From NCBI GenBank assembly GCA_951406725.2, contig OX597815.1, positions 187,674,001-187,738,000 on the forward strand: DNA of 64,000 bases, read 5' to 3'. Positions 20,930 through 37,149 of the stretch are shown here, one piece after another. The notes below the pieces were generated by a model that was given only the letters and a program-made list of their open reading frames with translations, had not been told where the DNA came from and made no database searches. The stretch's first letter is position 1. Each line of letters begins with the position of its first letter. Source of the stretch: Octopus vulgaris (Eukaryota). A program made the position numbers and the translations under genes.

Positions 20930-21117
20930 CATCAAGAGGTGCTGATCTCTAATTGTAGCGGGAACATGTAGGAGGGTAAACCCAGGAAGATGTGCAATGA
21001 AATAGTGAGAAAATATCTACAGATGGGACTGATAGAGGGGATGACAGGGGACTGAGAATCCTGGTGGTTTGCATACTGGCTGACCCCTGCAACCCTCTCC
21101 AGCTGAGCAGCCCTAAT
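20930..21117 (+). repeat. 188-bp direct duplicate of the RTE segment at 22009-22196
   Basis: One mismatch seen (CTACAGATG vs CTACGGATG). Confidence 0.95.
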
Positions 21118-21560
21118 ACACACATACATACAGACATACACACATACATACATACATTCATACATACATACACACATACATGCATACATATAGACATACA
21201 TACACACATACATGCATACATATACACATACATACATACCTATTTCTTTATTACCCACAAGGGGCTAAACACAGAGGGGACAAACAAGGACAGACATAGG
21301 TATTAAGTCGATTACATCGACCCCAGTGCGTTACTGATAAATTAAGTACCAGTAACGCACTGGGGTCGATGTAATCGACTTAATACCTATGTCTCTCCTT
21401 GTTTGTCCCCTCTGTGTTTAGCCCCTTGTGGGTAATAAAGAAATAGGTATGTATGTATGTGTATATGTATGCATGTATGTGTGTATGTGTGTCTATATGT
21501 ATGCATGTATGTGTGTATGTATGTATGAATGTCTGTATGTATGTGTATGTCTGTCTATGT
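21118..21560. repeat. Palindrome made of a SINE B tail plus its flanking microsatellite, 13-bp spacer
   Basis: 21118-21336 is inverted at 21350-~21560; spacer ATAAATTAAGTAC. Confidence 0.95.
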
Positions 21561-21859: not shown

Positions 21860-22196
21860 AGCTGTGCTCTGCTTGATGGGTAATGTCAGTGTGCATACAT
21901 GACGGAGTGTAAGTGATTTTGAGAGGAAAGCTAAGGCATCAGATGTAGTGTGAAAGAGAGAAGACTGTGCTGGTATGGTCTCATAATGCATATGAATGAA
22001 GACAGTTACATCAAGAGGTGCTGATCTCTAATTGTAGCGGGAACATGTAGGAGGGTAAACCCAGGAAGATGTGCAATGAAATAGTGAGAAAATATCTACG
22101 GATGGGACTGATAGAGGGGATGACAGGGGACTGAGAATCCTGGTGGTTTGCATACTGGCTGACCCCTGCAACCCTCTCCAGCTGAGCAGCCCTAAT
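21860..22196 (+). mobile_element. RTE LINE 3' fragment
   Basis: GIRCSVKERRLCWYGLIMHMNEDSYIKRC*SLIVAGTCRR/KPRKMCNEIV resembles the RTE RLRWYGHV.RM...GRPRKTW motif. Confidence 0.85.
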
Positions 22197-22204
22197 CTTT
22201 CAGG

Positions 22205-22659
22205 CTCATAAATGCCGGTGCCATGTAAATAGCGCCCATACCAGTGCCACATTAAAGCACCCTTGCCGGTGCTGTGTAAAAGCACCCTGTACACTCTGTA
22301 AAGTGGTTGACATTAGGAAGGGCATCTAGCCATAGAAACCATGCCACAACAGACAATTGGACTCTGGACAGTTCCTCAGCTAGCCAGCTCTTGTCAAGCC
22401 ATCCAACGCATGCCAGCAGGGAAGATGGATGTTAAATGATGATAATGATATATATATATATCTGTGTCGGTGGCACGTAAAATGCACCCACTACACTCAC
22501 GCAGTGGTTGGCGTTAGGAAGGGCATCCAGCTGTAGAAACACTGCCAGATCTGACTGGCCTGGTGCAGCCTTCAGGCTTCCCAGACCCCAGTTGAACCGT
22601 CCAACCCATGCTAGCATGGAAAGCAGACGTTAAACGATGATGATGATGATGATGATGAT
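22205..22659 (+). mobile_element. Two tandem SINE C 3' parts
   Basis: Two copies of TTAGGAAGGGCATC..., each ending GTTAAA(C/T)GATGAT. Confidence 0.88.
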
Positions 22660-22663
22660 ATAA

Positions 22664-22830
22664 TATCTGAAATATATAGTATTATACATCCATCACGGGT
22701 GATCTTGGTTAGTTCTGATGAGCATAAGGTTATATAATCAGATTTTTATCTAACACTCCATTGTATTCCTTGCATGAAACCAATTGGTAAGATCAACTGT
22801 GATGGATTATAATACAATATATTTCAGATA
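22664..22830 (+). ncRNA. Type I hammerhead-ribozyme-like motif inside a fold-back element
   Basis: CTGATGA (22715-21), GCATAAGG..CCTTGCAT, GAAA (22776-79), palindromic CCAATTGG, TA; enclosed by ~43-bp inverted arms. Confidence 0.7.
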
Positions 22831-25800
22831 ATATACCCACTCTATTGACATCTTTTCCCAGATTTATAGTCTCTAAGATGACTCATGAGCAGATATATAT
22901 ATATATAGATAGATATATATATATATGTGTGTGTGTGTATATGTATATATTTGTACATATACTTTTTATTAAAGCTGAAAAAATCTTCACAAACTGCTAC
23001 TCAGAGTTTCATGTTACCTTTCATCTGACAGCTGTGATCATACTAAAACACACACTCATACACACACATGAACATACACATGTGTGTATAGCATTAATAT
23101 ATGTTATACATATACAAATGTGAGTACATATGTGTTGTTTACATTTAGATTGTAATTTAGAAGTATTGAGACTTATGCATACACATATGTATTTTAGTGT
23201 ACATTAGTTTATATATATATATATATATATATAGATGTACATATGTCAGTGGATACATACACACATGATTGCATATTTGTTCACGGTCATTTTTCTTTTT
23301 AGTTAATAGTTGAAGTTACAAACTATAATTTTCTATTACTGGATATGTTTGATATTTCTATTCTGTCTATTATTAGAGGTGTATTTTTCTTGTTTTTTGT
23401 TTTGCAATATCTTATTCCCATGTCTTGTTTTAATTAATAAATTCATGAAATATTTTTTTCTTATTATTACTAAAAGAATTTTTTTTTTTTAATTCCAGCT
23501 TCAGTAAACATTTTCACACTTGTGAGTAAAGATATTTAATAATAGAACTACTTACAATGCTGAGTCAAGTCCCAGCTTGTTTTGCCCTGCTCTAATAGAA
23601 ACTGCTCTTGATAAATATTATTTATTATAGAGAGAGAGAGAGCATTAGATCTGGCTACATAATAACTCACACAACCTTTTCATAATAATATAGCTAAGTA
23701 GTTCTCATTTCTTTGATTGTATTATATATTTAATTAGCATTGTATGGATTTATCTACAGATACCAATGTAGACTACTTAAGCGCAATAGCAGAACTCTTC
23801 ATTTTTATTTTCTTCTTTTCATTTTTATCTGTTAGTGTTAACCTTGTTTGGATGCTCTGACTGGATTAATGTCTTTTTAATGATTCTATTGTCACTGGTA
23901 ACAAAGGTTTATTTCTTTCTACATTGTAATAGTAAAATTGTATTTTTTTTTTCCTTCAGTCGTAATTAAAACCGAGATAATGAAATTTATGAGGAAGTTA
24001 TTATTTATAGTCTTCAGAGTCTTGTTGCTGATTGTAAATGTAAGATTGTTGTAAATATGTGTTTTCTTTTTCCTATCAACACCATTTAGTTTTGTTATCA
24101 GGATACTCGGTTTTAGATTTGCTTTTTAAGGCTGCTTTACACAGTGTATTTTTTTTTCTCTTCCTGATTTGTTATATCTCGTTTGGTTTCAATCCAAGAA
24201 ATACTTTGATAATGTACAGAATAAGAGTATTTCTTGTCACTGGAATTTTGATAAAACTGAGATAAATCTAAAAAGAAACTACAAGTTACAGAAATGATAA
24301 ACTCACATATATAAATCTTTTTGTTAGGTAATTTTATTTTTCTCTATATAACTTAGGGAGGAAATGTGTTCCAAAGTTTTCAAAAATTCAGAAAACATTG
24401 CTGAGAACAATATATATGAAAACTGAGATTTAATATGAGATAAATTACAGTTCTGTTGGTTTAACCCATTAGTATTCACAGTTGACGTGTGTTGATGCAT
24501 TTATCTAAAAAATGCCGAAATATTGAAAAGTAAGAAAAACATGACTTCATGTAAGATTGGTGGGGGTCTTTCCGGCTGCCAGATATAATATGTCGGCTTG
24601 GTTATCGTCATTCCAGTTTTGCTGGCTAGAATATTGAAGTGTTAAGATACTTTTTACCGAAGCTGACAGCACTGAAGAGCAGGAATAAATCTGTAAGTAC
24701 TCCTCTTTTGAGCTTCAACGGCTTAAAATATTGACACTTAACTTTCCCTTTGATGAGTCAACTATTAATGTTGAGGAGTGCCTACTTAAGGCACATCATA
24801 TCATTACCAGAATGGCTAATAGCTTATGTCCATTAGTAGCTTGCACAGAAAAGTCAAAGTTCTGCTGGTATACAAACACCTAACTCACAGTTCTCTGAAG
24901 TCTTGCATCTTATCCACTTGTTTACAGCACTTCTATATTACTGTATAGGCTATGATGATAATTATTGATGAATAAACAAAAGAGAGGTTTGATTATTAAT
25001 GTTTGAGATCATACAATATAATCTAAACCCAATGAAGTGAATGACTTTTCTTTTTACACGATTAAATTACTTATCATAGAAATTACCTTTATTTCTTCTG
25101 CTGAGTTAATTATGTTAAGGTTGCCGAATATCTCCTGTAAGCTCTCTGAGAGTACATACAATGTTTGAAAGTAATTATAACTTTTGTCACATATGATGTA
25201 ATCTATTTCATTACATATGATGCAATCTATTGTGTGTGCAAATACATTTATTAGTCTTGCTCTGCTCTTGCTGTGAAGATTGTTCTCAGTTAAGCCTAAT
25301 TTAATGAAATGATGTGATCAGGAAGTTAGCCTATCATGATTTCATTTGTCCTCAAGCCCAATATGTCCATCATGTGCTCTCTGTTTTCACATTCATAATA
25401 GACTCTCTTCAGATCTACCATACTCACCTGGTAAATCTATTATGTGTCAGTAAATATAATTCAAAAGAGACTCAAAATCATGATTGTTAATTCCTGATCA
25501 TGTGGTCATATCAACTTGGGTTTTAACCCCAAACAATATTCACAGCATGACTTGAAAGTATGTTTACATAGACATAATAGATTAAGTCATGTAATAGGTT
25601 AGAAAAAGTATGATTAATCTAGTTGCATTTTTTTTCTTTTTCTTTCTTTCTTTTTTTTTTTTTTTGAAGTCCTTACCTCTTTTTATACAAAACATGTTAT
25701 GTATAAGACATTTACTTGTAATTATTGAATGAGCTCATAACAAGACTTGGGAGGAGTTTAAAACCTATTAAAAATCATTCTTGTCTGCTTATTTGTCATA

Positions 25801-36245: not shown

Positions 36246-37149
36246 GGCAAAATAAGCTTGTGCTTAGGGCATCAAAGGAAAAAAAGCACCACAGAAATAG
36301 TAAATGGTTTACAGCTCCAAAGGAATCACTTTAAACTTGCTAAAATAATAATCAAAGTGGTTTGTATGATAGTAAATATAATTTTGTAGAATTGATGGTG
36401 TCATGGTGAGGATTTGATCAAAGACTTTGCAATTAAAAAAAGTAGGATATAACTTTTCAAATATAAATAATGTGGAAGTAAGCAAAAATAAACATTATTT
36501 CCCATTTTTCCCATTTATTTCCCAGTTTTGTTTCATTTTGAGAAATAAAAATTTATTTTATGGTTTATTATTGTTTACATTTTGAATTACATTAATATGG
36601 GGACACCAAAGTCTTTTGAGTGCTTAAGGCCTGCCTCCATGAATCTTAATCCTGCCCTGGCTCACATGAATCGGACTGAGTGCACTGTGGCAAGTCTTCT
36701 GCAAGCAGATGCTCTTCCAGTCACCAATCCTCCCCTGTTAAACAAGGTAATATTTCCCCATGTTTTGTCACTGAAGACATTGCTTGTCTGATGGTGATGT
36801 CCATATACAAATATTGAATGATGTCAAGACAAGTATATATAATATTCTTTTATTCTTTTACTTGTTTCAGTCATTTGACTGCAGCCATGCTGGAGCACTG
36901 CCTTTAAAAAATATGGAATGCTTCACCAATTTGCATGTCATTCTTGTGCAGGGGCCATACTCTTTACTCTCTTTTACTTGTTTCAGTCATTTGACTGCGG
37001 CCATGCTGGAGCACCGCCTTTAGTCGAGCAACTCGACCCCGGGACTTATTCTTTGTAAGCCCAGTACTTATTCTATCGGTCACTTTTAGTATGTGTATTG
37101 CCATATGAAAATTTATACAAGCAAATCAAATGGAAATTGTAGTTGTGGA

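Follow-up and report, generated by a model that had tools for sequence, protein, structure and literature searches.

A hammerhead motif within a probable two-armed Penelope-type insertion in the genome of Octopus vulgaris

A hammerhead ribozyme motif and a long hairpin lie together in a 64,000-nucleotide stretch of Octopus vulgaris DNA (GCA_951406725.2, contig OX597815.1, positions 187,674,001 to 187,738,000 of the forward strand), hereafter the window, whose own numbering is used throughout. The surroundings of the locus are AT-rich and abound in microsatellites and dispersed repeats. The locus is a 5'-truncated main copy of a repeat (about 22706–22892) with a stretch of its 3' part, inverted, in front of it. 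The order is (ATG)n, the inverted copy, the main copy from 22705–22707 to at least 22866 and probably 22892, and then (AT)n, with the following parts:

22463–22658, plus strand: older, unrelated repeat with an (ATG)n tail, presumably SINE-like; left flank and insertion target (13 other window matches to 22463–22638)
22659–22706, minus strand: left arm, an inverted, 5'-truncated second copy of the 3' part of the repeat (identical to the right arm in 43 of 48 columns; family contigs differ here)
22707–22714, plus strand: start of the 5'-truncated main copy and probable decayed remnant of the native helix I 5' strand (the junction may lie anywhere within 22705–22707)
22715–22721, plus strand: hammerhead core C3–A9 (same letters in one 14-contig loose-end consensus)
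22722–22775, plus strand: helix II, with six of eight positions paired, enclosing loop II of 38 nt (pairing is restored or kept by the family variants at 22769, 22772, 22774 and 22775)
22776–22789, plus strand: GAAA, self-complementary helix III (22779–22788) and H17 (from sequence, folding energy and Hydra-clade layout)
22790–22835, plus strand: right arm, comprising the helix I 3' strand and then the 3' region up to a putative short (proximal) reverse-transcription start
22836–22892, plus strand: one-sided tail of the main copy (homology to 22866; end at 22892 placed by the start of (AT)n)
22893–22926, no strand: (AT)n-type microsatellite, right flank and likely target

The hammerhead parts stand in the type I order CUGANGA, GAAA, UH. 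The core reads CTGATGA (CUGAUGA) and is followed by the 5' strand of helix II, GCATAAGG (22722–22729), by loop II (22730–22767), by the 3' strand, CCTTGCAT (22768–22775), and by GAAA at 22776–22779. Helix III is the perfect 10-nt palindrome ACCAATTGGT at 22779–22788, U16.1 and A17 fall at 22788–22789, and cleavage is predicted between 22789 and 22790. An earlier account made from the letters of this stretch, here called the sequence-only reading, had placed every one of these ordered parts (core, helix II, loop, GAAA, palindrome and UA) correctly, and its assignment of the motif to the type I hammerheads of Penelope-like elements (PLEs), with a self-complementary helix III, is supported.

A strict descriptor, devised after the site had been seen (core, GAAA, self-complementary helix III of at least 10 nt, UH and at least six of eight helix II pairs), matches once in the window, against a mean of 0.0033 matches in shuffled windows (300 shuffles). 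With the criteria relaxed, there are two matches (0.59 expected) or 16 (11.07 expected). A weak second match to a loose descriptor, on the minus strand at about 25335–25412, has an 8-nt helix III and four of eight helix II pairs, and stands at chance level with 0.59 expected per shuffled window. The comparison with Rfam that the sequence-only reading had proposed as a check was negative: no hammerhead model matched at E values up to 5 over 6 kb, at E values up to 10 over 126 nt, or at the gathering score. Matches to Rfam miRNA and snoRNA models were rejected, as all lie below the cut-offs. Elsewhere in the window a U6 snRNA-like match (36907–37003, minus strand; 44.6 bits against a gathering score of 44) is probably a decayed copy.

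The two arms, 22659–22706 and 22789–22835, are identical in 43 of 48 aligned columns, with one gap. Inverted arms of ~43 bp had been noted before; they are present, at a slightly greater length. The fold of 22640–22860 has a z value of −5.94, none of 200 shuffles being as stable, and the window holds no second copy of the element. Expressed in family positions, the inverted copy runs from 22835 down to 22789–22791, a span of 46–48 nt, and its inner end lies at most one base from the predicted cut. The left arm begins exactly where the homology of the main copy ends. Position 22835 is 46 nt past the predicted cut, and the outer end there reads ATATA. The tail beyond it measures 57 nt at the locus and about 71 in the family, the locus being without 14 nt behind 22850. 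No target-site duplication is readable in the flanking simple repeats.

Part of 22655–25300 is contained in 20 of 24 public sequencing runs (five organisms); no RNA run is listed as containing it, which carries no information on expression. Contigs from four runs of four organisms were aligned to 22560–22900 at a likeness of at least 80%, with 22560–22668 skipped as repeat. The family contributes 630, 654, 396 and 605 contigs per run, mostly less than 95% alike. Depth peaks over loop II, where the summed values are 3633–56026; they are 930–2317 in the 22704–22715 bin (174 in run X8) and 74–1058 over the left arm. Mapping accounts for part of the low value over the left arm, since contigs that fit both arms may align to the right one. 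Contig counts are not copy numbers, and what they imply is an old, dispersed family of hundreds of copies or more.

Before 22714, 44, 66, 39 and 51 contigs have loose ends that carry one shared upstream sequence, unlike the left arm. Its last letters line up with 22707–22713 and are complementary to the strand past the cut; 30 nt of family sequence upstream of the core are known. On the other side, single contigs that begin in the core or loop II cross the right arm and reach 22847–22850 (22715–22847, 22720–22850), and 18, 33, 18 and 27 contigs with loose ends behind 22850 continue with 14 letters absent from the locus, after which the family consensus matches 22851–22866 at 14 of 16 positions. 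These statements concern the best 24 of 358 loose ends and the best 32 of 2335 aligned contigs. As the family has another sequence upstream and continues downstream past the right arm, the repeat neither begins at the left arm nor ends at the right arm. The contig of the locus itself is not among the best 32 of 2335, so missing junction-spanning contigs prove nothing.

Among the seven joints listed, two fit, in our reading, other two-armed insertions with other break points: one from 22693 to 22829, found in one contig each in runs X1 and X4, and one from 22749 to 22808 on opposite strands, found in one contig in X4. Two joints from 22706 (opposite strands) are read as ordinary reverse-strand copies and the remaining three as deletions. 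A metagenome scan with the core-plus-helix III pattern gave no matches; a 19-letter pattern gave 22 metagenomic loci, which were rejected, none having an upstream core and BLAST over 19–32 nt around the pattern pointing to chance. Searches of the literature turned up no published description of the family, which may be catalogued already in a repeat library such as Repbase, Dfam or that of O. vulgaris (PMC13282606).

At the locus six of the eight helix II positions pair, and a G-U and two mismatches adjoin the core. The closing pair G10.1–C11.1 is absent here, and the family has G at 22774 in 45–51% and C at 22775 in 46–48% of depth. For the 3' strand, these states bear out the earlier suggestion of CpG decay in helix II; the partner CpG changes at 22773 and 22776 amount to 16–29% and 8–10% of family depth. 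Two changes outside CpG keep the pairing: G to A at 22772 (33–39% of depth, U-G to U-A) and C to T at 22769 (36–42%, G-C to G-U). For the 5' strand, one 14-contig consensus with an agreement of 0.61 has G at 22724 and T at 22725. The ancestral strand GCGCAAGG put forward in the sequence-only reading is unnecessary, because T at 22725 pairs with either G or A at 22772, and it was rejected as needing one extra non-CpG change. There is also an alternative family form, seen at loose ends behind 22763 in 10–15 contigs per run, which has another helix II 3' strand and keeps GAAA and helix III.

The best 40 of 59 family variant positions include none 5' of 22740 and none at 22777–22780 or 22783–22792, and invariance is not proven by this. 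Helix III was described earlier as a perfect palindrome, which is true of this copy; as a family state it does not hold, since 22782 is G in 31–46% of depth, and the palindrome of the locus is perfect partly because of a CpG change at this position. With the family G, helix III still self-pairs through G-U. The computed energies, −13.0 kcal/mol for the self-duplex and −0.9 for the hairpin, predict that the palindrome prefers the dimer.

Between the left arm and C3 lie 8–9 nt. Five of the eight letters at 22707–22714 agree with the family upstream consensus joined to 22714, and the same spacer can pair at seven of eight positions with 22790–22798 across one bulge, a level reached by 1.2% of window 8-mers. 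This pairing is not part of the predicted minimum-energy fold. Helix I of the locus would consist of 2 bp, a mismatch, 1 bp, a bulge and 4–5 bp, with a T22709–A22796 pair in place of the C and G that are common in the family (72–84% G at 22796), a possible compensatory change that is seen in one copy only. The 8-nt spacer is probably the remnant of the true helix I strand.

A real hammerhead motif and a real hairpin are thus likely to share a known cause, a short two-armed insertion of PLE type. The reading preferred here, with a probability of about 0.8, is that an old copy of a dispersed, hammerhead-bearing repeat, by now decayed, was inserted here by the reverse transcriptase of a PLE, probably one of Hydra type, and that the hairpin is the overlap of two copies. 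The inverted 5'-truncated copy adjoins the 5' end, homology beyond 22835 (to 22866) exists on the right side only, so that the tail is at one end, and the target is AT-rich or (TA)n. Craig et al. (PMC8557442) describe PLE insertions that have a tail at one end and, next to their 5' end, a 5'-truncated copy in inverted orientation, and Arkhipova et al. (PMC3846280) show the same layout for Adineta Pen2a. The sequence-only reading had not recognized the architecture as that of a described family; the combination of inverted 5'-truncated copy and one-sided tail is nonetheless published in these two papers. Frangieh et al. (PMC11167929) report a Poseidon PLE protein that acts on both strands of AT-rich DNA, cutting and extending each, and two internal RNA start sites, between which the tail lies. 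Points against a PLE insertion include the unreadable target-site duplication, the failure of Rfam hammerhead models to match, a helix I and loop II unlike those of the Hydra clade, and a tail of ~71 nt, longer than the published 30–40 bp. Both arms also deviate from the common family state at the same three positions (22817 A, 22820 T, 22826 A), as a later duplication at the DNA level would explain as well.

Following PLE biochemistry, the reverse transcriptase would copy the repeat RNA from both sides of one AT-rich DNA break. One DNA end would be primed at the distal start (~22892) and extended across the hammerhead into helix I; the other would be primed at the proximal ATATA (22835) and stop at the cut site, and both cDNA ends would be joined at 22705–22707 with 1–3 nt of microhomology. 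The hammerhead of the source RNA would have used the helix I strands 22707–22714 and 22790–22798 and would probably have been cut as a helix III dimer. The present copy is predicted to be dead, the base of helix II being broken by CpG decay and the helix I 3' strand sequestered by the inverted arm.

The inverted arm stops at 22789–22791, where the cut is predicted (22789/22790), and the main copy crosses the cut intact. It is possible, though doubtful, that the inverted arm was copied from self-cleaved RNA and the main arm from an uncleaved or re-ligated circular template. The coincidence was noticed after the fact in one copy; the arm would end at the same point had copying paused at the folded core or the dimer interface. 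According to Frangieh et al., cleavage is unnecessary in vitro and no reads end at the site; Poseidon_Ac in this respect differs from the locus, whose arm ends there (PMC11167929). This was the only paper found on truncation at a hammerhead cut. An enrichment of truncation ends at the cut would bear on the in vivo role of PLE hammerheads.

The closest known systems are PLEs and retrozymes. The locus shares with Hydra-clade PLEs a type I hammerhead near the 3' end, a self-complementary helix III of 9–10 nt starting with AC, a (TA)n target and a 5'-truncated inverted copy, as noted for Penelope-13_HM (PMC8557442). In File S2 of that paper all 26 Hydra-clade hammerheads have a 9–10-nt helix III starting with AC, six of the 26 being 10 nt long; Penelope-1_SK has a perfect 10-nt helix III palindrome and a UA site, and helix III of the octopus Hydra-1 is ACCA-A-TGGT. 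The six novel Hydra consensus sequences given there end, by hand count, 36, 46, 47, 88, 97 and 116 nt past the cut, distances similar to those at the locus, which ends 46 and about 118 nt past it. As a hint, the two-start geometry may be general, Hydra ends falling at 36–47 or 88–116 nt and those of the locus at 46 and ~118. Unlike the Hydra-clade rows, the locus has a loop II of 38 rather than 3–10 nt and an interrupted helix I in place of a mostly unbroken one of 3–7 bp, and it is distinct from Hydra-1_Obim, from which its flanks and helix II differ. Locus motifs of 10–12 nt gave no match or one unrelated match in the available supplement of PMC8557442, where matches split between lines or cells can escape. 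By analogy, the locus would work like a Hydra-type PLE end.

Poseidon_Ac and the canonical PLEs resemble the locus in the inverted truncated copy, the tail at one end, the AT-rich target and the two start points downstream of the hammerhead (PMC3846280, PMC11167929). Unlike canonical PLEs, the locus is ~235 bp long, has no ORF and carries a tail of ~71 nt against 30–40. An ORF beginning at the ATG of the core was rejected, a TAA stop following after 11 codons, whereas the ORF of Poseidon_Ac starts in stem II (PMC11167929). The PLE hammerhead consensus of Cervera and de la Peña (2014, PMC4209133) likewise has a long helix II (7–8 bp), a palindromic helix III and a predicted dimer, and the family probably shares its G10.1–C11.1; the locus differs from it in that, in the register used here, A9 and G10.1 are adjacent, with no additional nucleotide between them, and in a helix III above the minimal form.

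With animal non-LTR retrozymes the locus shares its non-coding nature, the type I hammerhead, the palindromic helix III and dispersed solo copies (PMC7229834, 10.64898/2026.07.22.740005). Their mobilization by PLEs has been proposed in the same two sources, and Li et al. 2026 (10.64898/2026.07.22.740005) derive retrozymes from PLE terminal repeats, many being solo copies; the available part of this work lists no cephalopod. Unlike retrozymes, the locus has one hammerhead and no tandem units, and none occur within the window, where the copy is single. No reverse transcriptase or GIY-YIG Pfam match was found in 85 of the 181 filtered window ORFs, and the analyses run found no such sequence linked to the family; a Cas_Csx8 match of 18.2 bits was rejected against a cut-off of 29.2. 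The odds are about even between a coding PLE and a non-coding retrozyme mobilized by a PLE as the source.

The alternative that survives best, though improbable, is that the main copy inserted alone and that the left arm was added later, by fold-back template switching or repair at the DNA level beside (ATG)n. Both arms do share the three non-family states at 22817, 22820 and 22826, and they diverge from one another (5/48) no more than the copy does from the family; however, shared states are also expected if one RNA species templated both arms. Moreover, the arm starts exactly at the 5' truncation point of the main copy, its ATATA end lies 46 nt past the cut, at a distance resembling that of three Hydra consensus ends, and the joint from 22693 to 22829 reveals a locus of the same layout with other break points in two runs.

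Less probable is the proposal of the sequence-only reading that the locus is a compact, non-autonomous, rod-like self-cleaving RNA element whose arms are an extended helix I. In its favour, the fold-back exists (z −5.94) and reaches the cut site with its inner end; with the left arm as helix I, helices II and III can be imposed within it for 5.5 kcal/mol. This arrangement leaves 9 unpaired nt between the closing pair and C3, so the arm does not adjoin the core and the outer stem is not supported as an extended helix I; the spacer probably holds the native helix I strand instead. The family upstream sequence, which differs from the arm, would supply the real strand. Imposing the native hammerhead fold takes 21.9 kcal/mol when the left arm is present, 14.1 when it is absent and 9.8 on 22707–22798 alone; from these costs and that of the arm-using fold, the arm is predicted to compete with the ribozyme, blocking rather than clamping it, and the locus copy is predicted to be inactive either way. 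Helix II is disrupted at its base in this copy, and the window contains no second one. Nor do the family contigs, with their other upstream sequence and their continuation beyond the right arm, support the fold-back as the unit of a new rod-like element family. Least probable of all is a MITE or fold-back DNA transposon with 48-bp terminal inverted repeats and a captured hammerhead fragment: the locus is short, AT-rich and non-coding with long inverted repeats, but these are not at termini, as the right arm is internal to a family that continues past it and is crossed by single contigs from the core or loop II, and no target-site duplication is visible.

As a decayed insertion of known layout, the PLE-type insertion favoured here matters little on its own. 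It does warn that a short two-armed insertion of a PLE can be mistaken for a rod-like ribozyme RNA or a MITE.

Other features lie nearby. A pyrimidine tract with AG, about 80 nt and GTAAG at 23940–24044 form a putative plus-strand exon, in which case the hammerhead would lie within an intron and in the sense direction; no host gene was identified around this exon. At 21230–21456 there is a younger, near-perfect palindrome of a different dispersed repeat, with 108 of 110 letters matching around a 7-nt centre, (TACA)n/(TGTA)n flanks and three other copies of the repeat in the window at 87–92%; it looks like a second two-armed insertion. The palindrome and its microsatellites are bracketed by a 188-nt direct duplication, 20930–21117 and 22009–22196, whose copies are identical at 187 of 188 positions and lie about 1.08 kb apart.
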